Shown here in pieces: positions 12,021-30,648 of a stretch of 64,000 nt of DNA (the first letter of the stretch is position 1; each line of letters starts with the position of its first letter). The notes beneath the pieces were generated by a model. That model saw nothing but the letters and a program-made list of their open reading frames with translations, made no database searches and was not told where the DNA came from. This DNA comes from an uncultured Rikenella sp. (lineage in GTDB: Bacteria > Bacteroidota > Bacteroidia > Bacteroidales > VadinHA17), in the NCBI GenBank assembly GCA_964621005.1, contig CAZUIF010000014.1, positions 12,457-76,456 of the forward strand, in the 5' to 3' direction. The position numbers were made by a program, and so were the translations under genes.

Positions 12021-13235
12021 TCAAATATAATCGATGGATACCTGCTTCATCCACTTGTCCTCCAGTATCCGGGCTATCCGCTTGACAACGGTACGCCGGA
12101 TCTCCAGGTCTACCGGAAGGGTCGGATCCTGGTGAGCCACATTGATGCGGGTACCTACCAGGAAGTTGATCTCGTCACTCTCCATTATCATTCTGACGAT
12201 CTTGTCTGCAGGTCCCTTGCCCAGCTTGACGCTGTTCCTGTATCCCTTGACCAGCTCATTTACCTTCTGCAGCGTCAGTATACCCTCGGTCACCAGGTCA
12301 ACACCCTCCATGAAGCTCTCGGGCGGAAGGTCAGGGTCCTCGAATATCAGCTCGTCAACTATCTTTCGGTTCAGCTCACGGGCCACGATATCAGCCGTTG
12401 TGCCGCCGCAAAGTATCACCTTTCCATTGTATCCGGTCACGCTTTCAGCGAGTTTCTTGTCCTTCTCCTCCTCGTAGGGAGGGCCTGTACATATGAGCAG
12501 CTTCCGCGGCTCCCTGAAATAGAGTATGGCACATGAGATATCGTCCTTTGCCTCGTAGTTGTCATGCTTATAGGCCATGTTCACTATCTTGGCGGCAAGG
12601 GTTGAAGCCGATATGGAGGGTTCGTTGGCAACCAGCGAGACAGCATATTGCTGAACGTTGTCGCGTTCCCATCCCAGTGGCCAGGCCGGTGATCCCATAC
12701 CGCTCTGGGCAACGCCGTCCGAAAGAAGTATTATCCTGTCTTCCTTGGCAGGGTAGAATGTGCACTTGTGCAGCCGCTTGCCGGCATTCCTCCCCTTGTC
12801 AAGAACCACATCCCTCCAGTCGGGTTCAAAGGGCTGGTTCCCTCTCAGGATGATGCAGCGAGGGTTGTCATACTCAAGTATGTTTGCCCTGCCGTCATTC
12901 TCAATGTCAACTATCGAAAAGGTGGCATAGCTGATCTTCCTCTCGGAACAGATTGGGAGTGTATTCATTATGATCTCCGCAATCCGGTCCGGCTCCTTGT
13001 GTTCACGGGTGAAGTTGAGAGCCATCGTAGAGGTGAGGGTGGCAAGTATATTGGCCTTGACCCCGTGTCCCATGCCGTCAGACAGAACGGTTATGATGCG
13101 GTTCTCCTCGCGTACGTTCTCTGACAGCAAGACATCACCGCAGATACGCTCATCGTGATGGTTGCGCTGCTGGCTGTTGACTTCGATGAAGAACTGCCTT
13201 TCCGTTATCGGGTTCGTGCTACTTTCCGGCTGCAT
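12021..13235 (-). CDS. PP2C/SpoIIE-family serine phosphatase with an uncharacterised C-terminal domain
   Basis: CGDVLL...ITVLSDGMGHGVKANILATL and ILLSDGV motifs. The ATG at 13235 (MQPESST) is preferred over the TTG at 13262. It overlaps the upstream sensory hydrogenase gene by 17 nt. Confidence 0.8.
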   Translation of the reverse strand: MQPESSTNPITERQFFIEVNSQQRNHHDERICGDVLLSENVREENRIITVLSDGMGHGVKANILATLTSTMALNFTREHKEPDRIAEIIMNTLPICSERKISYATFSIVDIENDGRANILEYDNPRCIILRGNQPFEPDWRDVVLDKGRNAGKRLHKCTFYPAKEDRIILLSDGVAQSGMGSPAWPLGWERDNVQQYAVSLVANEPSISASTLAAKIVNMAYKHDNYEAKDDISCAILYFREPRKLLICTGPPYEEEKDKKLAESVTGYNGKVILCGGTTADIVARELNRKIVDELIFEDPDLPPESFMEGVDLVTEGILTLQKVNELVKGYRNSVKLGKGPADKIVRMIMESDEINFLVGTRINVAHQDPTLPVDLEIRRTVVKRIARILEDKWMKQVSIDYI

Positions 13236-15096
13236 TCTTCTTCTGACGGAAAGATTCGACAATGGAATTGAGCATCTTCTCGGTCTCTGAGGCTCCCTCC
13301 CCGAGGAGGAAACCTATCTTCTGAACCATCTCAAGGTTCTTGTCAATGACGTCTGAGACCCTGGTTATCACCTCCTCACGCTGCACTTCCGGCGAAAACA
13401 GGTCGCGTATCACCGCCCCGGCAATCCTGTTCTGCCTTATAGGGAAGATCGAAATGTTGAACATCCGGTCTTCCAGTTGTACATCACGGCTGATAACCGA
13501 TTCGTTTTCGCGCAGAACGAAGGAGAAAATATTGTAGACGTTGAAAGGCAGCAGTGTCTTCAGGTCAGCCCCGCGCAGTCCCGGGATAATCTCGGCAATA
13601 GCCTTTGCATCTTCACCTATTATTTCAAGGAAACGGGCATTCGACTGGAGTATTTTCAGTTCGTTGTCAACTATCACCACCCCGTTGGGCAGCTTGTTGA
13701 GCATGCTGTTCATGGTTTCGGAGGCATCCTGGGCTGCATCCTTCTCGCGCATGGCCTGTTCCTCTGACTCCTTCAGCGCCTTCTTGGTCTCTGAGAGCTT
13801 TTTGTTCGTCTGCCTGAGAGTCTCAATGTATTCCTGCTTGTTTCGCAGGTTATATGTATGGCACATCTCCGGCACGGCCAGACCCTTCGCCACGGTGGCG
13901 GCAAACTCGCGGCACGACCCGTAACCGCAGGCATTGCAGTTGAGCTCTTCGGCCCGGTTATCCTTGCCGATGATTTTCAGCACCTCAACGATAGCCTCCG
14001 GAGAGGGCTCCGGGATACGCTGGTCATTGACGGTGAAACGGCGCGTGAGGTCAAGCTTCGACCACCGTTCCATATCCTTCTTCCACTGTTCCTTGTCAAG
14101 TGACTCAACCCGTTTTTCAGCGTACTGTTTAACAAGGGAGCGGCGCCTGAACCGCTCGTCATGCCGGATCATGCCAGGCCCGAGCATGCAGCCCGGACAG
14201 AAGAAGAGGTTGAAATGGTGCCTGATCGTGTCAATATGATCGTCGAAGTCGCTGATGGCCTCCTTCACATCCTCAGACCCTGAGGCAGTGATAACATGGC
14301 TTGATACAATGTCGCGCTTGATCCCTGCCGCCTGCAGGATGCCGGCAGGGTAGGGGTATAAGGCACCCCAGTTGCCGAAGGGAGGATCAAACTCGGCCAT
14401 CTTGACAGTCTTTTCCTGTATTTCGTTTTCTTCGAAGAGCTGCCTGATCTCAATAAAGGTCAAGACAGCCTCAACAAGGTTTTTCTCACTGTATAGGGCT
14501 GCTTCAGCCTTGATGTCTATGCACGGCCCGATAAAGACGTTGGCCACATCCCCGCCGTACAGATCACGCGTCACCATTGCCGTGGCAACCATAGGGGAGG
14601 CCAGCGGCGCAAGGTTGGGAACCAGGTGCGGGTGGTACTTTTCTATCATCTCAACTATTGAGGGGCAGTTCGATGTGATATAATACTTGCCGCTCGACTC
14701 CTCGAAGAGCTTCCGGTACTCATAGGCCACAAGGTCAACACCAAAGGAGACCTCATGGACATACGTGAATCCCAGGCTTCGGATCATTCCGACGAATTTG
14801 CGGTAGTCGGTAATGTCATCAAATTCCGAAGCAATGCTGGGCGCAATAAGGGCTGCTGTAGGGCGGCCCGACTGCAGTAACTGCCTTACCCGGGAACGGG
14901 AATCACTGAACTCGATCGCTCTTGGGGAACATGCCAGGAAACAGAGCCCGCAACCTATGCACCTGTCAGCAATGATTACCGGGTGAGCCCTCTCGGGCCT
15001 GACCTCAATTGCATTTACAGGACATACCCTTACACAGGAATAAGAGTTGCGGCACTTTTCCTCATTTATATAAATTACCTGGTCAGGTATATTCAT
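13219..15096 (-). CDS. hydS: Sensory-type [FeFe]-hydrogenase-like protein with C-terminal PAS domain (HydS / HfsB-like, phosphatase-linked)
   Basis: N-terminal ferredoxin-like Cys motifs. H-domain motifs TSNCPS (L1), GPCIDIKAE (L2), FFCPGCMLGPG (L3). Extra CNACGYGSC-x16-C (Cx2Cx4Cx16C). Coiled coil, then PAS (LPNGVVIVDNELKILQSNARFLEIIG). Confidence 0.8.
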   Translation of the reverse strand: MNIPDQVIYINEEKCRNSYSCVRVCPVNAIEVRPERAHPVIIADRCIGCGLCFLACSPRAIEFSDSRSRVRQLLQSGRPTAALIAPSIASEFDDITDYRKFVGMIRSLGFTYVHEVSFGVDLVAYEYRKLFEESSGKYYITSNCPSIVEMIEKYHPHLVPNLAPLASPMVATAMVTRDLYGGDVANVFIGPCIDIKAEAALYSEKNLVEAVLTFIEIRQLFEENEIQEKTVKMAEFDPPFGNWGALYPYPAGILQAAGIKRDIVSSHVITASGSEDVKEAISDFDDHIDTIRHHFNLFFCPGCMLGPGMIRHDERFRRRSLVKQYAEKRVESLDKEQWKKDMERWSKLDLTRRFTVNDQRIPEPSPEAIVEVLKIIGKDNRAEELNCNACGYGSCREFAATVAKGLAVPEMCHTYNLRNKQEYIETLRQTNKKLSETKKALKESEEQAMREKDAAQDASETMNSMLNKLPNGVVIVDNELKILQSNARFLEIIGEDAKAIAEIIPGLRGADLKTLLPFNVYNIFSFVLRENESVISRDVQLEDRMFNISIFPIRQNRIAGAVIRDLFSPEVQREEVITRVSDVIDKNLEMVQKIGFLLGEGASETEKMLNSIVESFRQKKNAAGK

Positions 15097-15124: not shown

Positions 15125-15382
15125 CTAAACAAGCTCTTTTTCCAGGATCTTCTCTATATCCTGTACGCCGATACCTGTAAATGTCTTCCCGTTGATAATT
15201 ATAAATGGACCCTCGCTGCACCGGTTCATGCAGCGTGCACCCCTGAGAACCACTTTGTCATCAAGGTGATTTTTTCTCAGAAAATCCCTGATGACCTGTA
15301 CTACCTCCCTGTTACCTCTTGAAAAACAAGAGCTTCCAAGGCAAATTTCAATGTTGTACGATTGTCCCAACACCCTTTGCAT
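15125..15382 (-). CDS. Thioredoxin-like [2Fe-2S] ferredoxin (HfsA-like)
   Basis: ICLGSSCFSRGN ... ARCMNRCSEGPFII (Cx4C...Cx3C). The ATG at 15382 is preferred; the ORF track start at 15400 is a TTG. Confidence 0.7.
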   Translation of the reverse strand: MQRVLGQSYNIEICLGSSCFSRGNREVVQVIRDFLRKNHLDDKVVLRGARCMNRCSEGPFIIINGKTFTGIGVQDIEKILEKELV

Positions 15383-15454
15383 TAGTTCATACTCACTCAA
15401 AAGTACAACAATTTACAACGCACTCACCTCCAAAAAGCTAATTTGAAATGTTAT

Positions 15455-15472
15455 TTGTTAATAAAATAACAA
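15455..15472. promoter_or_regulatory. Candidate Rex operator in the divergent hydrogenase promoter region
   Basis: TTGTTAATAAAATAACAA has palindromic half-sites TTGTTA/TAACAA and is close to the reported Rex consensus TTGTKAAnnnnTTMACAA. It is nested in the larger inverted repeat TGTTATTT(15449-15456)/AAATAACA(15464-15471), with a further AAATAACAAT copy at 15481-15490. Confidence 0.5.
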
Positions 15473-15538: not shown

Positions 15539-16006
15539 ATGAGTAAGATAGATGATATTCTGAGCCGTTACAGGGAGGGCAGTCATGAGAACCTGATACC
15601 CATCCTCCAGGATGTCCAGGAGGCGGAGGGATATCTCTCTGAGAGTGCCATAGTGCAGATTGGCAGTTTCCTCAGGATGTCAACCACAAAGATTTACGGC
15701 CTGGCCACCTTTTATGACCGTTTCAGGTTTATTCCGGCAGGAAGGGTGCACATGCGGATCTGTAACGGTACCACCTGTTTCATTAACGGTTCTGCGGCGG
15801 TGGTTGCAGCGGTCAGGGATACACTTGGCATTGACCCGGGGCAGACAACCCGTGACGGCAGGTTCAGCTATGAACTGACTGCCTGCCAGGGTGGATGCAA
15901 CGACAGCCCCGTTGTATGCGTTGGCGGGAACTATTTTACACGCCTGCGTCCTGAGGATGTCCCTGAACTCATTACCAAACTTAAAGCACTGGCGGACCTT
16001 AAATGA
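15539..16006 (+). CDS. hydC: NuoE-like [2Fe-2S] subunit of an NAD(P)H-linked hydrogenase (HydC/HndA-like)
   Basis: 155 aa. LIPILQDVQ, CNGTTCFINGS and CQGGCNDSPVV motifs. 4-nt overlap with the next gene. Confidence 0.85.
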   Translation: MSKIDDILSRYREGSHENLIPILQDVQEAEGYLSESAIVQIGSFLRMSTTKIYGLATFYDRFRFIPAGRVHMRICNGTTCFINGSAAVVAAVRDTLGIDPGQTTRDGRFSYELTACQGGCNDSPVVCVGGNYFTRLRPEDVPELITKLKALADLK

Positions 16007-17952
16007 AACAGATCGCAGATTACGGCACGAAGGAATTCCTTATCAGGGAGGTGTTGCTTCACGGCTCTGACAGCCTGCCTGCCGGGACAGTGGGGAGGCT
16101 TGCTGAAATACGCCGCGACAAACCTTCAGCGCCGGTTATTTATGTTGCTTCAGGCTCGGCTGCAATCATTGCCGGAGCCAATGCTACTGCCATGGCTGCC
16201 GTTCAGTGGCTTGAGGAAATGGGAATAAACGGAGAGGTGGTACGAACAGGCTGCCAGGGACCTGCCGCCTTCGAGCCCCTTGTCTGTGTCCACATTCCGG
16301 GTAAGAATAAGCTGATATTCAGGAATATATCCGAGGATAAGGTGGAGCCGCTGCTCAACGGCGTCTTCCATAAGGACATGCCGGCGGAGGATCTCGTGGC
16401 CCAGTCGGGAAACACCGGATTCGAGGCATGGCATGATATTCCCTTCCTTGAGGAGGTGCCATTCTTCAGGATGCAGAAGAGGGTGGTACTGGGCAATTGC
16501 GGCTGGTATGATCCTGAGAGCATTGAGGAATACATAGCCCGCGGAGGTTACCGTACCTTTCTCAAGACCATACGCAATTACACCCATGAGGAGGTTTGTG
16601 ACATCATTGAGCGCAGCGGTCTGAGGGGACGCAGCGGCGGCGGCTTCAATACCGGACTGAAATGGAAATATGCACTTAACTCGGCCTCGGACAACAGGTT
16701 TCTTATCTGCAACGCCAAGGAGAGTGACCCCGGATCATACGCTGACAGGTCGGTGATGGAGGGCGATCCGCACCGTCTGATAGAAGGGATATGCATTGCC
16801 TCCTACGCCATAGGTGCTTCCAGCGCCGTCATCTACCTCAAGACCGGATCGCCCCACCCGCTGGCACGTCTGCGAAAGGCCCTCGCCGCCGCCGCCGACT
16901 ACGGCATTACCGGACATAATATCCTTTCCAGTGGCTTTAACCTCGAGATAATGATCAGGGAAGAGGCAGGAGCCTTCGTATGCGGTGAGGAAACCGCACT
17001 GATAGCTTCCCTCGAAGGCAAGCGGGGCATGCCTGAACTTAAACCCCCGTATCCCACAACAAGCGGCCTCTTCGGCAAACCGACCGTCATCAACAACGTG
17101 GAGACGCTGATGAATGTTCCGCTTATCATGTCACATGGCCCGGAATGGTTCCGCGCCATGGGGACAGAAGGAAGCAAGGGAACCAAACTGTTCTCCCTCG
17201 GCGGAAGAGGCCGTTATACGGGCCTGATAGAAGTGGAGATGGGTACCACCTTCCGGACTATCTCCGAAGGAATAGCCGATGGCATTAGGGATGGAAAGGC
17301 GTTCAAGACCATGCAGATAGGAGGTCCGTCGGGTACCTTCATCACAGAAAATAACCTTGACCTGCCAGTCGATTTCGATGTACTCCGGGACAACGGAATA
17401 GCCATGGGTTCCGGCGGGCTTATTATAATTGACGAAACCACCTGCCTGGTCGATTTCGTACGGTATTACATGGAGTTCATCCACAAGGAGAGCTGCGGCA
17501 AATGCATCCCATGCCGTGAAGGTACGGGCCGTATGCTCGAGATCCTTGAGAATGTGGTTCGGAAGCCTCACAATGAGGACTCAAATGCCACCCTCGAGAG
17601 GTTCAAGGGTGTGATGCAGCTTGAGACAATTGCCTCGGTGATGAAGGACACTTCGCTCTGCGGGCTTGGCCAGACGGCTCCCAACCCTTTCATCAGCGCA
17701 CTTGCCAACTACCGTGAGGAGTTTGAGGAGCATATCTTTGACCGCCGTTGCCGTGCCAATGTTTGCCGGGGACTCAGGACCTTCAGCATCGATGTCGAGA
17801 AGTGCACCGGTTGTACTGTATGTGCCGCCAAATGCCCGGTAAACGCCATCTACGGCACCCGGCTCCAGCCTTTCTTCATCGTGGAGGACAAATGCATCGG
17901 GTGCGGGGTCTGCCATGATGTATGCAAGTTCAGTGCCGTTACAGTAAAATAA
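16003..17952 (+). CDS. hydB: NuoF-like flavoprotein subunit (HydB/HndC-like) with N-terminal thioredoxin-like domain and C-terminal 2x[4Fe-4S]
   Basis: GRSGGGFNTGLKWKY (FMN site), CNAKESDPGSYADRS (NADH site), ESCGKCIPCREGT (N3 cluster), CTGCTVCAAKCP and CIGCGVCHDVC. The N-terminal domain keeps only 1-2 of the expected cluster Cys. Confidence 0.85.
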   Translation: MKQIADYGTKEFLIREVLLHGSDSLPAGTVGRLAEIRRDKPSAPVIYVASGSAAIIAGANATAMAAVQWLEEMGINGEVVRTGCQGPAAFEPLVCVHIPGKNKLIFRNISEDKVEPLLNGVFHKDMPAEDLVAQSGNTGFEAWHDIPFLEEVPFFRMQKRVVLGNCGWYDPESIEEYIARGGYRTFLKTIRNYTHEEVCDIIERSGLRGRSGGGFNTGLKWKYALNSASDNRFLICNAKESDPGSYADRSVMEGDPHRLIEGICIASYAIGASSAVIYLKTGSPHPLARLRKALAAAADYGITGHNILSSGFNLEIMIREEAGAFVCGEETALIASLEGKRGMPELKPPYPTTSGLFGKPTVINNVETLMNVPLIMSHGPEWFRAMGTEGSKGTKLFSLGGRGRYTGLIEVEMGTTFRTISEGIADGIRDGKAFKTMQIGGPSGTFITENNLDLPVDFDVLRDNGIAMGSGGLIIIDETTCLVDFVRYYMEFIHKESCGKCIPCREGTGRMLEILENVVRKPHNEDSNATLERFKGVMQLETIASVMKDTSLCGLGQTAPNPFISALANYREEFEEHIFDRRCRANVCRGLRTFSIDVEKCTGCTVCAAKCPVNAIYGTRLQPFFIVEDKCIGCGVCHDVCKFSAVTVK

Positions 17953-17955
17953 GCC

Positions 17956-19671
17956 ATGCAGTTCACCATAGAAGTAAATAACAAGAGCATCAGGGCGGAG
18001 AAGGGTGAAACCATCCTTTCAGCGCTGAACCGCAACGGCATTATCATACCCACCCTGTGCCGCATGGCAGAGTTCACCCCTACAGGCGCCTGCCGCATGT
18101 GCGTGGTGGAGGTCGAGGGTCGCGACAGGCTGGTTACTGCCTGTTCCGCACCCGTTGAGGAGTGGATGAAGATAAAGACCCATTCTCCCCGCGTCATCAG
18201 GGCCCGCAAGACAATCGTCGAGCTTCTCCTCTCAAACCATCCCGATGACTGTCTGTACTGTGACCGCAATCTCGACTGTGAGCTTCAGCGCCTTTCAGAT
18301 GAGATGCAGGTCAGGGAGCGGCGCATTCGCGGAAGCAAGATCAAGCCCCGCCGCGACCAGTCGAGCCCTGCAATTGTCCGTGAGCTCTCGAAGTGCATCC
18401 TTTGCGGCCGTTGCCTCAGGGTTTGTGAGGAAGTTGTCACAGCAACATCAATTGACTTTATAGGCCGGGGCCGCTATACCCATGTTGGTCCCGCCATGGA
18501 CCGCGACTTCAACTTCTCGAGCTGCATTCACTGCGGTCAGTGCGTGCTTGTCTGCCCTACCGGAGCCCTTCATGAAAAGCATTACCTCACAGAGGTACAG
18601 GAACAGCTCAGTAACAGTGATGTGACCCGCGTCATCCAGTATTCGCCCCTGGTGCCATATGCTCTTGCCGAAGAGCTGGGGATAAAATACAACCGCGACT
18701 TCGACAGGCTGCTCAACGCTGCACTGAGGAAAACAGGCTTCGACAGGATCTTTCTTTCAGGGACCGGAACAGATATCCTGATAACCGAACTTACTGATGC
18801 GATTATCAACGGCAAAAACAATCCGGAAAGGAAGCCGCTGATAGTTTCGGCATGTCCGGCATGGGTCAAGTACTGTGAGCAGTTCACACCAGAGTTGCTG
18901 CCCATGCTTTCGACCCTGAAGACACCGCAGCAGATATCAGGCGCTATCATAAAGTCCGTGGTCCCGGTCAGTGAAGAGAAGCCGCGGGTTTATACCGTAA
19001 GCGTCACCCCGTGCACTGCCATGAAGTTCGAAGCACGCCGCGACAGCATGACAAGAAAGGGGATCAGCGATATCGATACCGTGCTGACTGTGAGGGAGCT
19101 GGCGAGACTGATCGTCCTCTACGGAATTGATATCACGAACATAGACCCGGAGCCGGCCGATGAACCGATGGCACTGCGCAGTTCAGCATCCTTCCTCGCT
19201 GAGTCGGCAGGCGGTATTACCGAATCAGTTCTGCGGTCACTTGCAGCACGTATGGGAGAGAAGGAGGCTGACAGGCCTGCGGTGAAGAAGCTGCGCAATA
19301 CCGGCACCTTCCGTGAGACAATGGTCACGGCGGGAGGAGAGACATACTCTGTTGCCGTTGTTGACGGGCTGAAAGGCCTTTCAAAGCTCAGGCAGATGAT
19401 TGAGGGAGGAGCGCAGTATGACCTTGTGGAGGTGATGGCATGCCCCGGAGGATGTGTCAACGGAGGGGGAATGCTTCCGGCAGGGTCAAGGGAGGCCGTC
19501 AAGCAGAGAACACGCTTCATATGGCAGACGGATGACCAGGAGGCAGTTCGCGCACCGGAACAGTCGGCCTCGGTGGCTGACCTCTACGGCAGGGTATTTG
19601 AACAGTGTTCCGAGCTTGCTGACAAGAAGCTGTTTAATACTCACTTCAGCAAGCGCGAGGTATTGCTATAA
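17956..19671 (+). CDS. hydA: M3-type [FeFe]-hydrogenase large subunit (NuoG-like N-terminus) with non-canonical H-cluster motifs
   Basis: N-terminal [2Fe-2S] region (CRMAEF..GACRMC..C), HPDDCLYCDRNLDCELQ, CILCGRCLRVC, CIHCGQCVLVCP. H-domain aligns colinearly with CpI: IVSACPAWV (L1), VTPCTAMKFEA (L2), VEVMACPGGCVNGGGMLP (L3). Confidence 0.8.
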   Translation: MQFTIEVNNKSIRAEKGETILSALNRNGIIIPTLCRMAEFTPTGACRMCVVEVEGRDRLVTACSAPVEEWMKIKTHSPRVIRARKTIVELLLSNHPDDCLYCDRNLDCELQRLSDEMQVRERRIRGSKIKPRRDQSSPAIVRELSKCILCGRCLRVCEEVVTATSIDFIGRGRYTHVGPAMDRDFNFSSCIHCGQCVLVCPTGALHEKHYLTEVQEQLSNSDVTRVIQYSPLVPYALAEELGIKYNRDFDRLLNAALRKTGFDRIFLSGTGTDILITELTDAIINGKNNPERKPLIVSACPAWVKYCEQFTPELLPMLSTLKTPQQISGAIIKSVVPVSEEKPRVYTVSVTPCTAMKFEARRDSMTRKGISDIDTVLTVRELARLIVLYGIDITNIDPEPADEPMALRSSASFLAESAGGITESVLRSLAARMGEKEADRPAVKKLRNTGTFRETMVTAGGETYSVAVVDGLKGLSKLRQMIEGGAQYDLVEVMACPGGCVNGGGMLPAGSREAVKQRTRFIWQTDDQEAVRAPEQSASVADLYGRVFEQCSELADKKLFNTHFSKREVLL

Positions 19672-19683
19672 AAGAAGGAACCG

Positions 19684-21654
19684 ATGCTTGTATATACAAT
19701 AAAGGAGCTTTGCCGTACATGCTACACCTGCGTGAGGGAGTGCCCTGCCCGTGCTATCCGTATTGTGGGCGGACAGGCAGAGGTGATAACCGAAAAGTGT
19801 ATTGCATGCGGCAACTGTACAAAGGTGTGCAGCCAGGGAGCCAAGGTGTTTGTAAATACCGTTGACCTGGTGCGCAAGGTACTTGCAAGGCCCGGCAAAA
19901 AGGCAGCATTGGTGGCCCCCAGCTTCCCCGCGGAGTTTTATGACATCGATGACTACCGGAAGATGGTCGGGATGATCCGGGCCCTGGGCTTTGACTACGT
20001 CTCGGAGGTTTCATTCGGGGCTGACCTTGTTGCTCACCGCTACCGCAACCTCATAAGCGAAGCCGGTGCAAAAAACTATATTTCATCTGACTGTCCGGCA
20101 ATAGTATCATTCATAAGGTTCTATCATTCCGATCTTACTCCTGATCTTATCCCCGTCGTTTCACCCATGGTGGCCATGACCAGGGTTATGAGGAAGAAGT
20201 ACGGCGATGACCTGTCAGTGGTATTTATCGGTCCTTGCGTTGCCAAAAAGGCCGAAAACGCCGAAGTGGATGCAGCTATCACATTCATTGAGCTGCGCGA
20301 GATGTTTGAAACATCCGGTATCACCCCTGAAACGGCAGCACTTTCCGGGTTTGATCCGCCGCTTGGCGGAAGGGGGGCAATATTCCCCGTAACAAGAGGG
20401 CTGCTCCAGACTGCCGGTGTAAATGATGACGCTATAACCGGAAATATTATTGCAGCGGAAGGACGGATCGGCTTCCAGGAAGCAATCAAGGAGTTTGAAC
20501 AGGGAATGATAGGCGGTCAGCACCTTGAGCTGCTGTGCTGTGAAGGATGCATAATGGGCCCGGGAATGAGCAAGGGCGGCAAACAGTACAACAGGAGGGC
20601 ACTGGTGAGTTCCTATGCCCAGAATAAGATGGCTGCACTTGACATGGCGGAGTGGCGAAACAACCTTGAGAACTATGACAGGCTTGACCTCTCCGTTCGC
20701 TACCGTCCCGAAGACAAAAGGCAGCTGATTCCTCCCGACGACAATGAAGAAGTGCGGCAGGTCCTGGCTTCGATGGGGAAGGTGACTGACAAGGATCACC
20801 TTAACTGCGGTGCATGCGGATATGATACCTGCTATGATCACGCAGTAGCAATAATAAGGGGACTGGCCGAGGAGGAGATGTGCCTGCCCTATACCATTGA
20901 AAAACTGCATAAATCAGTACAGGACCTGGCACTGTCGAATGCCAAGCTCACTACAATGCAGAACGCCCTCAAGCAGTCGGAGAAGCTGGCGCACATGGGG
21001 CAGCTCTCCGCAGGCATAGCACATGAGCTTAACAACCCGCTCGGTGTGGTCATCATGTACAGTAATATCCTGCTTGATGAGTGCAGGCCGGAGGACCCGG
21101 TGCGGGAAGACCTGCAACTGATTGTTGAGCAGGCCGCGAGATGCAAGAAGATAGTTGCCGGACTTCTCAACTTCGCACGCAAGAACCAGGTCAACCACCA
21201 GTTCATTGACATCAGGAAACTTACAGAGAACAGCGTTGCCGGTGTAGTCTTCCCTGATGACGTGAAGGCTGTCATTGAAGACCGGACAACCAGCCCTGAT
21301 GCATCACTTGACTCAGAGCAGATGACCCAGGTGCTGACAAACCTGTTCAGGAACGCCATCGATGCCATGCCCGGCGGAGGAATACTGAAAATAACCCTTG
21401 AAGATACGCCCGGAGATGTTATATTCATAGTTTCGGATACCGGAAGCGGGATTAAGGACGAAGACAAGCCCAAGATCTTTGAGCCCTTCTTTACAACCAA
21501 GGGGCTTGGCAAGGGCACCGGCCTCGGACTGGCTACCACCTACGGCATTGTTAAAATGCACAAGGGGCAGATAACGGTGGAGACAAACAGCAACCCTGCC
21601 AAGGGACCCACAGGCACCACCTTCAGGATCATCCTTCCAAGGAGACCTGAGTGA
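19684..21654 (+). CDS. Sensory-type [FeFe]-hydrogenase-like domain fused to a histidine kinase (HydS-HK / HfsD-like)
   Basis: CRTCYTCVRECP and CIACGNCTKVC. H-domain motifs SSDCPA, GPCVAKKAE, LLCCEGCIMGPG. CGACGYDTC-x16-C. H-box LSAGIAHELNNPL. HATPase motifs NLFRNAIDAMPGGG, DTGSGI, GTGLGLATTYGIV. Confidence 0.85.
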   Translation: MLVYTIKELCRTCYTCVRECPARAIRIVGGQAEVITEKCIACGNCTKVCSQGAKVFVNTVDLVRKVLARPGKKAALVAPSFPAEFYDIDDYRKMVGMIRALGFDYVSEVSFGADLVAHRYRNLISEAGAKNYISSDCPAIVSFIRFYHSDLTPDLIPVVSPMVAMTRVMRKKYGDDLSVVFIGPCVAKKAENAEVDAAITFIELREMFETSGITPETAALSGFDPPLGGRGAIFPVTRGLLQTAGVNDDAITGNIIAAEGRIGFQEAIKEFEQGMIGGQHLELLCCEGCIMGPGMSKGGKQYNRRALVSSYAQNKMAALDMAEWRNNLENYDRLDLSVRYRPEDKRQLIPPDDNEEVRQVLASMGKVTDKDHLNCGACGYDTCYDHAVAIIRGLAEEEMCLPYTIEKLHKSVQDLALSNAKLTTMQNALKQSEKLAHMGQLSAGIAHELNNPLGVVIMYSNILLDECRPEDPVREDLQLIVEQAARCKKIVAGLLNFARKNQVNHQFIDIRKLTENSVAGVVFPDDVKAVIEDRTTSPDASLDSEQMTQVLTNLFRNAIDAMPGGGILKITLEDTPGDVIFIVSDTGSGIKDEDKPKIFEPFFTTKGLGKGTGLGLATTYGIVKMHKGQITVETNSNPAKGPTGTTFRIILPRRPE

Positions 21655-21696: not shown

Positions 21697-22089
21697 ATGA
21701 GTAAAACATATTCAGTCCTGCTTGCCGACGATGACCCTGATTACCTCTTCCAGGTGGCATACTACCTGCGCAAGGCCGGGTTCGGGGTGATGGCTGTGGA
21801 GAGCCAGGCTGAAGCAGAGCAGGTGATGGCAAAGACGAAGCCTGACATCGCAGTGTTTGACCTGATGATGGAGAGTGATGACAGCGGCTTCATACTGTGC
21901 TACAAGCTGAAGAGAAAGTATCCGGAGGTGCCGGTCATCCTGGCAACCGCCGTCTCCCGTGAGACAGGCATCACCTTCGGACTAAGCGGTGGACAGGACC
22001 GCGAGTGGATAAGGGCCGATCTCTACCTTGAAAAGGGTGTCAGGCCTGAACAACTGGAACAGGAGATAAAAAAACTTCTCAAAATCTGA
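21697..22089 (+). CDS. Stand-alone response-regulator receiver protein
   Basis: 130 aa. LLADDDPD, IAVFDLMM (phospho-acceptor Asp), no output domain. Confidence 0.8.
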   Translation: MSKTYSVLLADDDPDYLFQVAYYLRKAGFGVMAVESQAEAEQVMAKTKPDIAVFDLMMESDDSGFILCYKLKRKYPEVPVILATAVSRETGITFGLSGGQDREWIRADLYLEKGVRPEQLEQEIKKLLKI

Positions 22090-22091
22090 CC

Positions 22092-23240
22092 ATGGCACAA
22101 CTGAAGATACTTGTAGTTGATGACGAACCGGGCATAAGATCAGGTGTCACCAGGATCCTGGGCAATTTCCACGTTACTTATCCATTCATGGATGAGGACT
22201 ATAAGTTTAATATCCTGGAGGCTGCCACCGGTGAGGAAGGGATAGAAATTATTGACCGGGAGATGCCTGACATCCTCCTGCTTGACAACAAGCTCCCGGG
22301 AATCCAGGGAGTGGAGGTGCTCGAATATGTAAGGAAAAAGAATTATGACATCGTGGTGGCAATGATAACATCTTACGCCTCCATCGACGTCGCCGTAAGA
22401 GCGCATAATGACGGCGCCATCGACTTCATTCCCAAGCCGTTTACACCGCAGGAACTGAAGGCATCTATTGAGCAGATAACAAAGCAGCAGTATCTCCGGA
22501 GGATAACCCACAAGCTGAAGGTTGAAGGCAGGAAGGTCAGGTTCCAGTTTCTTTCCGTGCTGTCGCACGAACTGAAAGCGCCGCTCAACGCCATCGAAGG
22601 CTACCTCAGGATGATGCAGGGGAGGCAGATGGGCGACTCGCTCGATGAATACGCATCTGCTATTGAAAGATCGCTTCAGCGCATTGAAAGCATGAGGAAC
22701 CTGATAATGGACCTCCTCGATTTCACCAAGGTGAGCTTTGAGAGGCAGATGGAGAAGATGCAGAACGTGAACATGAAGGAGCTTTTATCCATGGCAGTGG
22801 GAACAGTCAGCCCCTACGCCATACACAAGGATATACAGTTTGTAACCGAGGTGAAGGGATGTGAGACAATATGGGCTGACCCCAACGATTTTGAGATAAT
22901 TCTCAACAACCTGGTTTCCAATGCCGTCAAGTACAATAAGCCGGGCGGAACAGTTACTGTTACCGTTGACTGCACTGAGAATGAATTCACCGTTTCGGTG
23001 GCTGATACCGGGATAGGGATGAACGGTGATGAGCGTGACATGCTCTTTGAGGAGTTCTCAAGAATCCGTAATGACAAGACCCGAAATATAAGCGGGAGCG
23101 GTCTGGGACTATCAATAGTGAAAAAAGTTGTTGATCTTTACCACGGCGTGATCAATGTGGAGAGTTCCCCTGACAGGGGATCGGTCTTCACGGTGATCAT
23201 TCCCAGGTCACAGGTATCCAATATTAAAACAGGAATATGA
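22092..23240 (+). CDS. Hybrid receiver + histidine kinase
   Basis: ILVVDDEPGIRSG...ILLLDNKLPG receiver, then FLSVLSHELKAPLNAI (HisKA) and NLVSNAVKYNKPGG, DTGIGM, GSGLGLSIVK (HATPase). Confidence 0.85.
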   Translation: MAQLKILVVDDEPGIRSGVTRILGNFHVTYPFMDEDYKFNILEAATGEEGIEIIDREMPDILLLDNKLPGIQGVEVLEYVRKKNYDIVVAMITSYASIDVAVRAHNDGAIDFIPKPFTPQELKASIEQITKQQYLRRITHKLKVEGRKVRFQFLSVLSHELKAPLNAIEGYLRMMQGRQMGDSLDEYASAIERSLQRIESMRNLIMDLLDFTKVSFERQMEKMQNVNMKELLSMAVGTVSPYAIHKDIQFVTEVKGCETIWADPNDFEIILNNLVSNAVKYNKPGGTVTVTVDCTENEFTVSVADTGIGMNGDERDMLFEEFSRIRNDKTRNISGSGLGLSIVKKVVDLYHGVINVESSPDRGSVFTVIIPRSQVSNIKTGI

Positions 23241-23875
23241 AAACACTCCCCGGAAAGACAGTTGAACGACTCAGCCAGTACCGCAGAGCGCTGACAGCCA
23301 CCCTTGCTTCAAACAGAAATTATGTTTTTTCACATGAGCTTGCCGCCATGCTGCACATCACTGCTGTGCAGGTAAGACGTGATCTCATGCTGATCGGTTA
23401 CGGCAGCGTGATGAGAAAAGGCTATGACGTGAGAGAACTGATCAATACAATAGGGTCAATTATTGATGGACCGACCAGCCTCAATGTGGCCATCATCGGG
23501 ATGGGCAACCTCGGCAGGGCCATCACCGGTTACTTCAAGGGCAAGCGTACCAACATGAATGTTGTGGCAGCTTTTGATGTCGATCCCCAGAAGGTTGACA
23601 AGGTGGTTGCCGGAGTCAGGTGCTACAATATCAGCCAGTTGAGGAAGTTCAGAGAGGAGCTCGATATCTCGGTAGCTGTCCTTGCCATTCCCGCCGACCA
23701 GGCGGTCACAATGGCTTCCATGCTTGTCAGCAACGGGATAAAGGGTATCATGAACTTTACAACCGTTCCCCTCAACATGCCCGACACAGTTTACCTGGAA
23801 GAGTTTGACATGATCACATCTATAGAGAAGGTGGCCTATTTTGTAAAGGAGAACCAGCAGCCGGCGGGACAATGA
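23237..23875 (+). CDS. rex: Redox-sensing transcriptional repressor Rex
   Basis: TVERLSQYRR...SHELAAMLHITAVQVRRDL (wHTH) and IIGMGNLGRAI (Rossmann NADH site). 212 aa. ATGA overlaps on both sides. Confidence 0.9.
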   Translation: MKTLPGKTVERLSQYRRALTATLASNRNYVFSHELAAMLHITAVQVRRDLMLIGYGSVMRKGYDVRELINTIGSIIDGPTSLNVAIIGMGNLGRAITGYFKGKRTNMNVVAAFDVDPQKVDKVVAGVRCYNISQLRKFREELDISVAVLAIPADQAVTMASMLVSNGIKGIMNFTTVPLNMPDTVYLEEFDMITSIEKVAYFVKENQQPAGQ

Positions 23876-24783
23876 GGATATTCAGGAGCTTTGAGGAGGC
23901 GTCGGTCATTAATGCCCCTGTGGTCACAACAGGCACCTTTGACGGCGTACACATCGGGCACCGGACAATCATAAACAGGCTGAAGAAACTTGCGTCGGAG
24001 CACGGCGGCGAAAGCGTGCTGATCACCTTCCATCCGCATCCGAGGGTGGTACTTTACCCTGAAACCGCAGGCAAGGGGCTGAAGCTGATATGTTCCCAGG
24101 AGGAAAAGACAGAGCTCCTGCGCAAGGCAGGGCTTGACAATGTAATTATTATTGAGTTTACCCGCGAGTTTGCGAAGATCACCAGCGAGGAATTCGTGAG
24201 GGATATCCTATGCGGGGTACTGGGGGCGAAGGTGATAGTCGTCGGCCATAACCACCACTTCGGGTTCAACCAGGAGGGTGACTACCGCAGGCTGTGGGAG
24301 TGGAGGGAGCAGTATGGCTTTGAGGCCGAAGAGATACCGATGCAGGAGGTGCAGAACGAGACCGTCAGTTCCACCCGCATACGGCAGGCTCTTACAGAAG
24401 GATACATCCAGCGTGCCAACGCATACCTGGATCATTTCTACCTTGTTATAGGCACCGCAGTAAAGGATGATCCCGGACTGTCACCGCTTGTGCCGATGAT
24501 ACGGATACCGGTGACAGACGTCACGAAGCTCGTCCCGGCACCGGGACTTTATGCTGTGTCCTGTGCCGCCGAGACTTACTTTTCAAGGGGGATGGTTTTC
24601 ATCCCGGACAACGGGACGCTTTTGCCGGATATATTCCTCCATCTTGAAAAATATGAGAGTGATATTCCGGGCAAGCGGATGACACTTTTCTTTCACAAGC
24701 GGCTCCAGGCGTCACGCTTCGGCATGGGTACAGAAAAGGCTCTTATTGAGGGTGTTAGGGAGATAGGTGAACTTATATTCTGA
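23872..24783 (+). CDS. ribF: RibF-like FMN adenylyltransferase/riboflavin kinase with a degenerate kinase motif
   Basis: N-terminal VVTTGTFDGVHIGHRTII and VSSTRIRQAL (FMNAT module). The C-terminal RFK-like module has GLYAV, but PMIR sits where the PTAN motif is expected. Confidence 0.75.
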   Translation: MRIFRSFEEASVINAPVVTTGTFDGVHIGHRTIINRLKKLASEHGGESVLITFHPHPRVVLYPETAGKGLKLICSQEEKTELLRKAGLDNVIIIEFTREFAKITSEEFVRDILCGVLGAKVIVVGHNHHFGFNQEGDYRRLWEWREQYGFEAEEIPMQEVQNETVSSTRIRQALTEGYIQRANAYLDHFYLVIGTAVKDDPGLSPLVPMIRIPVTDVTKLVPAPGLYAVSCAAETYFSRGMVFIPDNGTLLPDIFLHLEKYESDIPGKRMTLFFHKRLQASRFGMGTEKALIEGVREIGELIF

Positions 24784-24865: not shown

Positions 24866-26287
24866 ATGAAATTCAATCCTGAAAAATGCAGTATTCCTGA
24901 CCGCAGGATGGAGCCGTTCATTGATCCGGCTGAACTGTGGAATCATATAAATAATAACAAGGCTGACGCCGTAAGGGTGAGGGAGCTGATAGCCAAATCG
25001 CTTTCCAAGGAGCGCCTTACACTGGCTGAGACAGCTGTGCTCATCAATGCCGGAGGCAGCCTGGTTGAGGAGATCAAGGCCGGCGCACGCGAGCTGAAGA
25101 AAAAGGTCTACGGAAACAGGATAGTACTGTTTGCCCCTTTGTACATAGGGAACAAATGCACAAACAACTGCCAGTACTGCGGATTCAGGGTCACAAACAA
25201 GGAAGCAAGGCGCAAGACACTTTCCGATGAAGAGATTACGGCCGAGGTTGAGGCGCTTGAGGACAACGGCCAGAAGAGACTTATCCTGGTTTACGGTGAG
25301 CATCCGGAATACGGTCCTGATTATATAGCCCATACCGTAAACCTGGTCTATGGCATCAAGAAGGACCGGGGTGAGATCCGAAGAGTAAACATCAATGCTG
25401 CACCTCTTGATGTGGACGGATTCCGCACTGTTGGCAGATCAGGTATTGGCACCTACCAGATATTCCAGGAGACCTATGACCCGGAAGCATACAAATGGTA
25501 CCACCTCGGCGGGAAGAAAAAGGACTATGAGTGGCGCCTTACCGCCCTTGACAGGGCGCAGGAAGCCGGAATTGACGATGTGGGCATCGGAGCCCTGTTC
25601 GGCCTGTACGACTGGCGTTTCGAGGTGATGGGCCTGGTGAGGCATGCAAACCACCTGGAGGCCTGCTATAATGTGGGCCCTCATACAATCTCCTTCCCCA
25701 GGATCAAGGATGCCTCGGCGCTGAACCTCAACGGACAGTACTATGTCAGCGATGAGAACTTCAAGAAGCTGATAGCAATTTTGCGCCTGGCTGTTCCGTA
25801 TACCGGGCTTATTCTCACTGCCCGCGAGGCACCTGACGTCAGGTCCGAGGCTATGGCCTTCGGAGTGTCGCAGATAGACGGCGGAACAAAGCTTGAGCTG
25901 GGAGGGTACTCGGCCTCGAAAAATGCGGAGCAGAATCTCAACCGCGAGCAGTTCAAGATCAATGATGAACGGTCACTTGCTGACGTTATCGATGAGCTGA
26001 TAGACAATGACTACATACCGTCGTTCTGCACGGCATGCTACCGCCTTGGCCGTACCGGCGAGCACTTCATGGAGTTCTCAGTGCCCGGGTTTATAAAGCG
26101 GTACTGCACTCCCAACGCCATTCTTACACTGTCTGAGTATATTGTTGACTATGCATCGCCGGAACTGGCTGAAAAGGGATGGAAGGCAATCGAAAAGAAC
26201 ATGGCTGACCTCGACGAGGGGATGAAGCAGAGCATACTTAAGAAGATAGACAGGATAAAGAAAGGGGAGAGGGACCTTTACTACTAA
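24866..26287 (+). CDS. hydG: [FeFe]-hydrogenase H-cluster radical-SAM maturase HydG
   Basis: 473 aa, ThiH-like. CTNNCQYCGF radical-SAM motif and C-terminal CTACYRLGRTGEHFME...C cluster motif. Confidence 0.9.
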   Translation: MKFNPEKCSIPDRRMEPFIDPAELWNHINNNKADAVRVRELIAKSLSKERLTLAETAVLINAGGSLVEEIKAGARELKKKVYGNRIVLFAPLYIGNKCTNNCQYCGFRVTNKEARRKTLSDEEITAEVEALEDNGQKRLILVYGEHPEYGPDYIAHTVNLVYGIKKDRGEIRRVNINAAPLDVDGFRTVGRSGIGTYQIFQETYDPEAYKWYHLGGKKKDYEWRLTALDRAQEAGIDDVGIGALFGLYDWRFEVMGLVRHANHLEACYNVGPHTISFPRIKDASALNLNGQYYVSDENFKKLIAILRLAVPYTGLILTAREAPDVRSEAMAFGVSQIDGGTKLELGGYSASKNAEQNLNREQFKINDERSLADVIDELIDNDYIPSFCTACYRLGRTGEHFMEFSVPGFIKRYCTPNAILTLSEYIVDYASPELAEKGWKAIEKNMADLDEGMKQSILKKIDRIKKGERDLYY

Positions 26288-29492: not shown

Positions 29493-30581
29493 TCATTTTT
29501 TTGTCAGCCGCCTGCCGAAGTGCGGTGTATCACCCCAGGTGCCGAGACCCAGGCTGGTTCCGGGTATGAGATCGAGGTTCAGGCCGCTCACGTTTGTTTC
29601 ATCCACCTCGCGGTAACCCGGCTTGCCTTCATATATCTGGTAACCAGCCCTGTACTGTGCAGGGGTAATGTTGGGCATCACCACATTTGCCCCGCATGAT
29701 ATTGCCTTCTCGCGTCCTGCGGAATCAATTGTCTGCATGGCGGTTGAAGCAACAATATTAATATCCTTCATGATTATCCTCGTAATGGCTATCATCCTGA
29801 GGGTCAGATTGAAGCGTTCCTTCAGGAAAAGATTGTCAGTCCCCCTTTCCCCCAGGGGAGTGTCGGAATGCTCTATGAAGGGACCCATACCGCACATGTC
29901 GATGTCAAAATCACGCATGAAAAGGATGTCATCTGCAAGGTCGCCCATGGTCTGAAAAGGCAGACCAACCATCACTCCGGTGCCTGTCTGGTATCCTGTC
30001 TCCTGAATGATTTTCAGGCACTCAAGTCTCCTGTTGTACCGGTGCATGTCATCATCAGGGTGCACCCTCCGGTAGAGCGCCTGGCTGGAGGCCTCTATCC
30101 TCAGGAGGTAGCGGTGTGCACCGGCGTCAAACCATCTCTGATAGGTTTCCCGGCTCTGCTCTCCCAGCGACAGGGTGATTCCGAGCCTGTTGTCAGTCAT
30201 CTTCCGTATGGTTCTGACAAGGTCTTCAATTGTATCGACGAAAACTTTAGAGGAGTTCTCTCCCGACTGGATGGCGATGGATCCGAGGTTGAGCCTGTAT
30301 GCGGTCATTGCTGCATCCAGCACCTCTTCGCGGGTAAGGGTGTATCTGTCAACCTTCTCGTTGTCACGTCTTACTCCGCAATACAGGCAGTTTTTACCGC
30401 ATATGTTCGAGTATTCGATGAGTCCCCTCAGGTAGACGTGGTTACCTACATAGCGGTCTCTGACGGCTGCTGCCCTGCGGTATAAGAGGGGTGCCTCCTC
30501 CTCGCTGGAATGCAACAGGGCAAGAATGTCTGACCTGTCGAGGATTTTTTTGTCAATAATTGAGGCTATGCCCGAACCCAT
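29493..30581 (-). CDS. hydE: [FeFe]-hydrogenase H-cluster radical-SAM maturase HydE
   Basis: BioB-like. CGKNCLYCGVRRDN radical-SAM motif. The ATG at 30581 (MGSGIASIIDKK) is preferred, because the longer ORF would overlap the upstream gene. Confidence 0.85.
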   Translation of the reverse strand: MGSGIASIIDKKILDRSDILALLHSSEEEAPLLYRRAAAVRDRYVGNHVYLRGLIEYSNICGKNCLYCGVRRDNEKVDRYTLTREEVLDAAMTAYRLNLGSIAIQSGENSSKVFVDTIEDLVRTIRKMTDNRLGITLSLGEQSRETYQRWFDAGAHRYLLRIEASSQALYRRVHPDDDMHRYNRRLECLKIIQETGYQTGTGVMVGLPFQTMGDLADDILFMRDFDIDMCGMGPFIEHSDTPLGERGTDNLFLKERFNLTLRMIAITRIIMKDINIVASTAMQTIDSAGREKAISCGANVVMPNITPAQYRAGYQIYEGKPGYREVDETNVSGLNLDLIPGTSLGLGTWGDTPHFGRRLTKK

Positions 30582-30648
30582 TTTTTGCGTGAATCGTTTA
30601 ACATTAACAAGCCGGATGATTATAAGTTCAGCCCGGGCATAAATAAGA

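Follow-up and report, generated by a model that had tools for sequence, protein, structure and literature searches.

How much of its active-site pocket can an [FeFe]-hydrogenase replace and still be put to use? Two residues, Cys299 and Lys358 in the numbering of the Clostridium pasteurianum enzyme CpI, are deemed near-essential in these enzymes, and laboratory variants at these sites are inactive or cannot be loaded with cofactor. The question is raised by a gene, hydA*, found in a stretch of 64,000 nucleotides ("the window") from an uncultured Rikenella sp. of the Bacteroidales (contig CAZUIF010000014.1 of assembly GCA_964621005.1, positions 12,457 to 76,456). Here, nature has replaced Cys299, Lys358, the whole proton wire and Phe417 within a full HydABC scaffold, and has kept the result under purifying selection. 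HydA* is, in this sense, a natural test of which residues [FeFe]-hydrogenases need. The asterisk denotes the window protein together with those of its histidine kinase (HK)-linked relatives that have a non-canonical pocket. The operon that carries them is already known; the non-canonical HydA family inside that operon is the main new result.

The gene, and the codons that matter most to the argument, are these ("clade" meaning the large group of uncultured Bacteroidales relatives described below):

17956..19671, plus strand: hydA*, M3-type [FeFe]-hydrogenase large subunit with a remodelled H-cluster pocket, 571 residues (open reading frame, Pfam and structure matches)
18850..18852, plus strand: Ala299, codon GCA, at the proton-relay Cys299 of CpI (Ala in 97% of 115 clade sequences)
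19006..19008, plus strand: Thr351, codon ACC, at Met353 of CpI (96% conserved in the clade)
19021..19023, plus strand: Met356, codon ATG, at Lys358 of CpI, the distal-CN contact (alignment and codon reading)
19198..19203, plus strand: codons of Ala415-Glu416, at Phe417-Gly418 of CpI (Ala in 106 and Glu in 110 of 115 clade sequences)

The open reading frame (ORF) is intact from its ATG start to its TAA stop. When its product is searched against Protein Data Bank chains with phmmer, the best match is HydA1 of T. kivui (8a6t, E=9.5e-121), followed by the A. woodii (7q4v, E=6.4e-103), T. maritima (7p5h, E=9.3e-99) and CpI (about 5e-88) proteins; among the CpI chains, the highest score goes to 6gly, the C299A variant. 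Pfam finds the full M3 domain set (Fer2_4, NADH-G_4Fe-4S_3, two Fer4 and Fe_hyd_lg_C, the last being PF02906 with E=3.7e-63), and finds in HydA* no PAS, kinase or other signalling output domain. All ligands of the N-terminal iron-sulfur (FeS) clusters are present: C35, C46, C49 and C63 for [2Fe-2S]; H95, C99, C102 and C108 for the His-ligated [4Fe-4S]; and C146/149/152/156 with C189/192/195/199 for two more [4Fe-4S] clusters. So are the four H-cluster cysteines within Fe_hyd_lg_C by which an [FeFe]-hydrogenase is recognised (C300, C353, C496 and C500, corresponding to C300, C355, C499 and C503 of CpI). HydA* retains the bridging cysteine as well, along with Met497, Lys359 and Glu361 (CpI numbers).

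The pocket was compared with CpI and with three solved HydABC structures. The alignment to CpI has no gap over residues 201-302, so the numbering is the same through motif L1; HydA* then runs two residues behind CpI at L2 and three behind at L3, with every motif free of gaps inside. The motifs read IVSACPAW (L1), VTPCTAMKFE (L2) and VEVMACPGGCVNGGG (L3). Of the motifs of group A enzymes (L1 TSCCPxW, L2 MPCxxKxxE, L3 ExMxCxxGCxxGxG), only L3 is matched. L1 departs at VSACPAW, where Cys299 has become Ala; L2 departs at TPCTAMKFE, where Met353 has become Thr and Lys358 has become Met. Met356 is directly followed by Lys357, which is the retained Lys359 of CpI, and Glu361 is retained as Glu359.

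To this point, the original prediction, which was made from the letters of the window alone, holds up well. It had proposed an M3-type HydA beside genes for NuoE- and NuoF-like partners (hydC and hydB do lie directly upstream), a colinear and gapless alignment around the motifs, the replacement of the relay Cys and of Lys358 at the GCA and ATG codons listed above, the replacement of Met353 by Thr, and a canonical L3. What it understated is the extent of the change. E279L, E282A and R286G, together with C299A, remove the proton wire of group A: its positions C299-E279-S319-E282-R286 read A, L, S, A and G, and only S319 is left. Five further replacements, A230S, A272T, G412S, F417A and G418E, are fixed in the clade at positions where canonical enzymes are invariant for other residues, Phe and Gly being the canonical pair at 417-418. 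The net changes look volume-compensated (F417A with G418E; C299A with A230S and A272T), although this is a reading of the side chains and not a measurement. As a separate matter, many canonical trimeric HydA proteins, that of A. woodii HydA1 included, read TSCSP in L1, so that Ser stands where the cluster ligand Cys300 would be; environmental hydA surveys had already recorded this reading (PMC4284687).

An AlphaFold2 model was built from 35 family sequences, and only its H-domain portion was used. There the per-residue confidence (pLDDT) is 84-95; in residues 120-207, within the N-terminal FeS domains, it is below 50. Foldseek returns T. kivui HydA and CpI as the top matches of the model, and its H-domain superimposes on the D. 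desulfuricans hydrogenase (DdH) with a root-mean-square deviation of 3.2-3.5 A over about 368 columns. One might suppose that Lys357 stands in for the missing Lys358. In the model, residues 355-359 are predicted to be helical, with Met356 and Glu359 sharing one face and Lys357 off it; on this predicted geometry, such a substitution seems less likely.

Natural history provides a view of whether such a pocket is an accident. The 120 nearest 90%-cluster representatives, all from metagenome-assembled genomes of Bacteroidales and 66-94% identical to HydA*, contain SACPAW in 107 cases and PC[TMLI]AMKFE in 116. This recurrence, which answers the earlier question of whether orthologues share the Ala and the Met, means that the substitutions come neither from chance nor from sequencing error. 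In a collection of species-representative genomes, relatives of HydA* occur in at least 309 stretches, and every one of the best 80 of the 309 comes from an uncultured member of the Bacteroidales or Bacteroidia. The ORF is intact in 80 of 80 related loci. The ratio of nonsynonymous to synonymous substitution rates (dN/dS), computed pairwise between HydA* and its orthologues, is 0.02-0.06; for the H-domain against locus L001, where dS is unsaturated, it is 0.03.

Pocket residues were counted in 115 clade sequences and in 69 canonical representatives, the latter drawn from Bacteroidota only. S230, T272, A299, T351, M356, S410, A415 and E416 are each 92-99% conserved in the clade; at the same eight positions, the canonical representatives have another residue, 81-100% conserved. 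In the clade, the H-domain as a whole is much less conserved than the FeS domains (mean top-residue frequency of 0.77 versus 0.94), and it is against this background that the pocket must be read: 15 of its 19 positions are conserved at 92% or more, versus 40% of all H-domain positions (binomial P=6e-4). Arg408, Ser409, Ser410, Tyr229 and Met494 are likewise invariant in the clade, or nearly so. The remodelled pocket is a selected state, held by strong purifying selection. The wire positions, in turn, drift (L/I at 279, A/T/E at 282, A/K/S at 286); the old proton wire (C299, E279, E282, R286) is gone and unconstrained.

Where does this leave HydA* among characterised proteins? The HydABC complexes of group A3/Bfu (8a6t, 7q4v, 7p5h) give its best sequence and fold matches and have the same M3 domain order and FeS ligands; the window operon resembles them further in its NuoE/NuoF partners and in the C-terminal 2x[4Fe-4S] of HydB. 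Unlike these complexes, however, HydA* replaces the relay Cys, E279, E282, R286, M353, K358, F417 and G418, and the HydB of the window lacks the N-terminal [2Fe-2S] ligands. The rule by which HydDB assigns group A3 reads the protein encoded downstream, which here is a sensory hydrogenase fused to a histidine kinase (HydS-HK); the NuoF-type hydB is directly upstream of hydA* (PMC5037454).

The sensory hydrogenases offer a second comparison. As the original prediction had it, Ala in place of Cys299 is a HydS trait: it is A131 in TmHydS (group C) and A137 in TamHydS (group D), and together with the loss of the canonical wire it marks the groups C and D, which are putatively sensory (PMC10407848). 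A small residue at M353 is another trait typical of sensors (PMC10055695). HydA* combines all of these: a residue other than Cys at 299, a small residue at M353, and no Glu/Arg wire. Both TmHydS and TamHydS, without the canonical wire, still take up [2Fe] and turn over slowly (PMC10055695, PMC10407848), and by analogy HydA* might have low turnover and an alternative proton route (PMC10407848, PMC10055695). Unlike them, HydA* has no PAS or kinase domain, has a NuoG-like N-terminus with HydBC partners, and keeps Met497. It has also lost Lys358, which is reported to be conserved in TmHydS. This Lys (K228 in CrHydA1) is extremely well conserved generally, and K228 variants fail to assemble the H-cluster (PMC9516953), much as had been claimed when the substitution was first pointed out.

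Sensory HydS proteins are recognised by a signalling output domain (PAS, histidine kinase or MCP), or by a group C/D phylogeny of the H-domain with a C-terminal 4-Cys motif. By domain content and profile match, HydA* does not belong with them. It has no output domain and its best profile is that of group A6; the two HydS proteins that flank it do carry signalling output domains. Thus, HydA* is not a HydS-type sensor by architecture, and could have a sensory role only through the adjacent HydS-HK. Three readings had been offered at the outset: a catalytic enzyme with an alternative proton path, a slow or unidirectional enzyme, and a sensor wired to NAD(P)H and ferredoxin. The last, as a sensor in its own right, fails as a matter of architecture; the choice among the three is narrowed, not settled.

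Other parallels go only part of the way. CpII of Clostridium pasteurianum has a natural Thr at M353, as HydA* does; unlike HydA*, it is changed at M353 only, is grouped with the prototypical [FeFe] hydrogenases (PMC10055695), and is no HydABC subunit. Hydrogenase scaffolds have been reused for FeS binding and electron transfer, as in NARF/Nar1 and in the H-cluster-free HydA of NiFe-HydABCSL (PMC9304861, PMC5037454); HydA* differs in that its H-domain is complete and still has L3 and the bridging Cys. The HydA of A. mobile matches it, by phmmer, over the N-terminal 209 residues only. Groups E-G, which are archaeal minimal or hybrid enzymes, were set aside as unlike HydA* in architecture. In the literature searched, there is no description of a HydABC subunit with A299/M358, nor of non-canonical Bacteroidales forms.

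The argument now requires the neighbours of hydA*. This locus of 12 genes is strictly conserved: hydA* is syntenic with hydC, hydB, hydS-HK, rex and hydG in about 70 of the 80 related loci, one per species genome, and the proteins are 65-96% identical. From a shared promoter region, a minus-strand arm runs outward through a small [2Fe-2S] protein, HydS-PAS and a PP2C phosphatase, and a plus-strand arm runs through HydC, HydB, HydA*, HydS-HK, a receiver, a hybrid receiver-kinase, Rex, RibF and HydG, with HydE further on:

12021..13262, minus strand: PP2C/SpoIIE-type phosphatase, partner of hydS-PAS (Pfam, synteny)
13219..15096, minus strand: hydS-PAS, second sensory [FeFe]-hydrogenase homologue, with Asn299 and Ile358 (Pfam, NCBIfam, alignment)
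15125..15400, minus strand: small thioredoxin-like [2Fe-2S] protein (Pfam, synteny)
15455..15472, no strand: TTGTTAATAAAATAACAA, a perfect 18 bp palindrome of Rex type, about 65 nt before hydC and between the two divergent arms
15539..16006, plus strand: hydC, NuoE-like [2Fe-2S] subunit (Pfam and NCBIfam profiles)
16003..17952, plus strand: hydB, NuoF-like FMN/NADH subunit with a C-terminal 2x[4Fe-4S] domain of Bfu type (Pfam, alignment)
19684..21654, plus strand: hydS-HK, group C1-type sensory [FeFe]-hydrogenase fused to a histidine kinase, beginning 12 nt past the hydA* stop
21697..22089, plus strand: stand-alone response-regulator receiver (Pfam, synteny)
22092..23240, plus strand: hybrid receiver-histidine kinase (Pfam, synteny)
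23237..23875, plus strand: Rex redox-sensing repressor (Pfam, synteny)
23872..24783, plus strand: RibF-like FAD synthetase/riboflavin kinase (FAD_syn Pfam matches on the syntenic gene of related loci)
24866..26287, plus strand: HydG H-cluster maturase (equivalog TIGR03955, 481 bits, cut-off 312)
29493..30665, minus strand: HydE H-cluster maturase (equivalog TIGR03956, 320 bits, cut-off 254.6)

Zheng and Huang (2024) described this arrangement as sub-type V, a BfuABC with an HK-type BfuT, and reported Bacteroidota with a second bfuT upstream of bfuC (PMC11406978). The gene order of the window is identical: C-B-A, then the HydS with its fused HK, plus another HydS that lies upstream of hydC. The hydCBA arrangement had first been called typical of electron-bifurcating enzymes. 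It is not the generic arrangement but, specifically, the HK-sensor-linked sub-type V (PMC11406978). Those authors gave the consensus motifs xTSCxPxW and xxMPCxAKK and noted variation among sub-types without interpreting it (PMC11406978); unlike that consensus, HydA* has neither the Cys nor the Lys.

A Bfu core is present here, cysteine motifs included (the FMN/NADH site, B1 and the C-terminal [4Fe-4S] clusters B3/B4 of BfuB, and the [2Fe-2S] of BfuC). HydB aligns over its full length to the A. mobile, NfnB and HydB structures, with its C-terminal 2x[4Fe-4S] ligands intact. Its N-terminal thioredoxin-like domain (residues ~45-100) retains one of the four [2Fe-2S] cysteines of A. mobile HydB, and its FMN-site motif reads CNAKESDPG (residues 236-244) versus the canonical CNADEGDPG, an Asp-to-Lys change that is fixed in 75 of 76 clade loci. 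Across the HK-linked family, HydB has lost 31 of 117 canonical-invariant positions.

A search of 1.84 billion representatives shows how wide the family is. The proteins nearest to HydA* are diverse M3 HydA-like proteins that are non-canonical at 299, 353, 358 and 497. All those whose context could be read lie in a hydC-hydB-hydA-hydS(HK)-RR-RR/HK-rex-ribF operon, RR being a response regulator (P0123, P0124, P0127, P0128, P0129, P0135, P0137 and P0145; in P0124 the contig stops at hydA, so that the upstream half alone, a small [2Fe-2S] gene, hydC and hydB, was checked). The same HK-linked operon contains a fully canonical HydA in other Bacteroidales (P0400, P0320). Species genomes, sampled arbitrarily by a match to the L3 motif of HydS-HK, gave 59 linked hydA genes that could be assessed. 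These comprise 26 of the Met358 type of the window, 25 canonical genes and 8 other variants, which makes the Met358 pocket the commonest non-canonical HK-linked form in the sample. Neighbor-joining trees mix canonical and non-canonical HK-linked lineages, and this hints at repeated erosion of HydA in HK-linked lineages; the trees are without support values, and their topology was not relied on. Neither a cultured carrier of HydA* nor a biochemically characterised member was found. Perlabentimonas gracilis M08_MB was considered and rejected as a carrier: it was matched via HydS-HK, its locus ends before hydA, and by its HydS-HK it falls among lineages that have a canonical linked HydA.

What does HydA* do, then? 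Our preferred explanation, held tentatively and at a little less than an even chance, is that HydA* is a slow, sensor-grade H-cluster site that has an alternative proton route and is wired to NADH and ferredoxin via HydBC. This is favoured by the conserved pocket and Met497, both under purifying selection in the clade of the window, despite the hypervariability of the wider family. On this view, the sub-type V operon encodes a HydABC complex that is under Rex control and flanked by sensors, and HydA* would provide its H-cluster, as a subunit whose second coordination shell was presumably rebuilt and then frozen by selection in a large uncultured Bacteroidales clade. It would still bind the [4Fe-4S]-[2Fe] cofactor, and would exchange electrons with NADH and ferredoxin through HydBC. 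Its turnover would be slow and sensor-grade, unlike that of high-turnover group A enzymes. A new proton route to the amine bridgehead, made possible by F417A, would begin at Glu416, with Arg408, Ser409 and Ser410 as possible further members. Expression would answer the NADH/NAD+ ratio via Rex, and H2 via the two flanking HydS sensors. A proton path of the TamHydS type was considered as well and rejected: the position that we assume to match TamHydS E252, which we take to align with CpI V423, is Ile421 in HydA* and Ile or Leu in the clade.

A good deal weighs against this explanation, of course. Glu416 is a candidate start of the route by its position in the sequence. Met occupies the place of Lys358, where variants of model enzymes fail to assemble the H-cluster (PMC9516953). 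The best full-length NCBIfam model, NF040763 (group A6), gives HydA* 547 bits against a cut-off of 765, and TIGR02512 (FeFe_hydrog_A) gives 336.8 bits against 405.95; these sub-threshold scores are the reason that clade members have generic PGAP names. Further, nine HK-linked HydA* lineages, 35-45% identical to the window protein, keep the four cysteines, G421, G422, K359 and E361 (nearly) invariant, and have four to nine different residues at each [2Fe]-contact or wire position. Position 299 alone may be A, S, F, C, E, L or N. In 20 canonical paralogues from Bacteroidota, each such position holds a single residue. Of the positions that are invariant in canonical proteins, the HydA* lineages keep 23 of 152 in the H-domain and 39 of 56 in the N-terminal FeS domains. 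Such hypervariability of the [2Fe] pocket suggests that the operon tolerates the loss of a defined [2Fe] site, and some HydA* lineages may be without [2Fe] altogether. Finally, the canonical-type pocket is kept by the neighbouring HydS-HK and not by HydA*. In the window, HydS-HK reads SSDCPA, with Asp at the position of C299, and keeps K358, K359, E361, A230/P231/S232 and F417; across the same nine lineages its A230, P231, S232, A272, D299, C300, G353, K358, K359, E361 and F417 are almost invariant. To our knowledge, no group C1 enzyme has been characterised. The family hypervariability, the lost Lys358 and the conserved HydS-HK pocket together suggest that fast catalysis by HydA is not what the operon is selected for.

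Much the same evidence supports a different view, the main rival, which we consider doubtful. Here, HydA* has no [2Fe], or no useful H2 chemistry, and is an FeS wire or scaffold that links HydBC to a translationally coupled HydS-HK, the latter being the sole H2-reactive site; the whole would be a sensor referenced to NADH/ferredoxin, or a hydrogenase in which HydS is catalytic. The HydS-HK pocket is near-invariant just where HydA* is hypervariable, and the two genes are separated by 12 nt in the window, whereas in L081 and L089 they share 4 nt. Relaxation is centred on the H-domain, with the FeS ligands and the cysteines of [4Fe-4S]H invariant; the loss of K358 stops cofactor assembly in model enzymes (PMC9516953); and the H-cluster-free HydA of NiFe-HydABCSL is a precedent (PMC9304861). 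In L092, L134, L150 and L169, moreover, two canonical HydABC operons adjoin the non-canonical one. An empty pocket, however, makes it hard to understand why the pocket and Met497 of the window clade are conserved above the rest of the H-domain. The operon also occurs with canonical HydA in other Bacteroidales, which implies that the ancestral role of HydA there was catalysis. The binding of HydS-HK to HydA* is putative. Nor does a canonical hydrogenase from window-clade assemblies appear among the matches listed in two weak searches (at least 80 loci per canonical Bacteroidales HydA query, with no assembly shared with L001-L080). A more specific form of this idea, which we regard as quite improbable, has HydA repeatedly losing its canonical shell, such that the co-translated HydS-HK, its invariant pocket proton-competent with Asp299 and Lys358, became the H2-reactive site of a four-subunit HydA*-HydB-HydC-HydS sensor. 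The potential of its H-cluster would be referenced to NADH/NAD+ and ferredoxin via the bifurcating module; the sensor would gauge the driving force for confurcating H2 production and feed the phosphorelay.

It is unlikely, in our view, that HydA*BC is instead a fully competent bifurcating or confurcating hydrogenase with canonical A3-like rates, perhaps with altered bias or inhibitor tolerance. The operon, the maturases, the Rex control and the Bfu-type HydBC are as in canonical orthologues, the clade is rich in species with its pocket fixed, and the VorB and ADP-forming acyl-CoA synthetase family proteins encoded in the window need an electron sink. However, all characterised enzymes that lack C299 and the Glu/Arg wire are slow (PMC10407848, PMC10055695), and model enzymes are severely impaired by C299A and by changes at M353 and K358 (PMC10055695, PMC9516953). 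The drift of the proton wire, the profile scores below cut-off and an H-domain that evolves faster than the FeS domains, the opposite of canonical paralogues, also argue against a typical A3 enzyme. As for the notion that hydA* is a decaying relic without function, it could appeal to the loss of residues held to be essential and to the generic PGAP names. It is effectively refuted by the selection data: an ORF intact in every related locus, the dN/dS of 0.02-0.06 and a pocket fixed across at least 309 stretches and conserved above the H-domain background are not what a dead gene leaves behind.

The difference between these explanations has practical consequences. If HydA* binds an H-cluster, it provides a ready alternative second-sphere design with which to probe how protons are delivered, how cyanide is anchored and how catalytic bias arises. 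Otherwise, surveys that score such genes as group A3 bifurcating hydrogenases overestimate H2 capacity in the anaerobic digesters, sediments and soils that are rich in these Bacteroidales. In either case, canonical, intermediate and strongly diverged HydA proteins, encoded in one operon beside a HydS-HK whose pocket is invariant, form a natural series on the interconversion of catalytic and sensory hydrogenases.

The palindrome upstream of hydC is the only one of its kind in the window, where 0.05 matches are expected. Its position is shared by about 55 of 80 related loci and by the distant lineages L088, L089 and L091, and the conserved form is TTGTTA-N6-TAACAA. It resembles what we take to be the Clostridia-type Rex operator, and probably serves as the operator for the Rex of the locus (23237-23875). 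The classical Rex box, TGTGA-N-TCACA, was considered and set aside, as its matches in the window are intragenic only.

Several further observations concern the neighbouring genes. The RibF-like gene is a constant member of the operon between rex and hydG, and its product may supply flavin for HydB. HydS-PAS, which has Asn at 299, is without Lys358: the window protein has Ile at that position, and relatives have A, S, N or T (GPCID[IASNT]K[AD]E); the spacing of its L3 cysteines is C-x2-C versus C-x3-C in CpI. Taken from its listed TTG start, the PP2C ORF runs 44 nt into the end of hydS-PAS; the real start probably lies further downstream. The window ORFs that were scanned include no HydF.

Related genomes can be still more crowded. 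L092, L134, L150 and L169 (and, in part, L111 and L170) have a hydrogenase supercluster, with five H-domain genes in about 20 kb. Here, two canonical HydABC operons, one of the TSCSP type and one of the TSCCP type in B-A-C order, lie just upstream of a block made up of the PP2C/HydS-PAS genes and the non-canonical, HK-linked HydA* operon. One further match from the search of representatives, P0122, is a protein of 4122 residues that the H-domain matches seven times, each in a stretch of its own (745 bits, 30% identity). This is a giant with many H-domains or else an artefact of assembly or gene calling.

Elsewhere in the window lie genes for an ADP-forming acyl-CoA synthetase family protein (32550-34679), a VorB-type subunit of a 2-oxoacid:ferredoxin oxidoreductase (38614-39681) and a tryptophanase (43368-44747). 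An amino-acid-fermenting, ferredoxin-reducing lifestyle fits these three genes.

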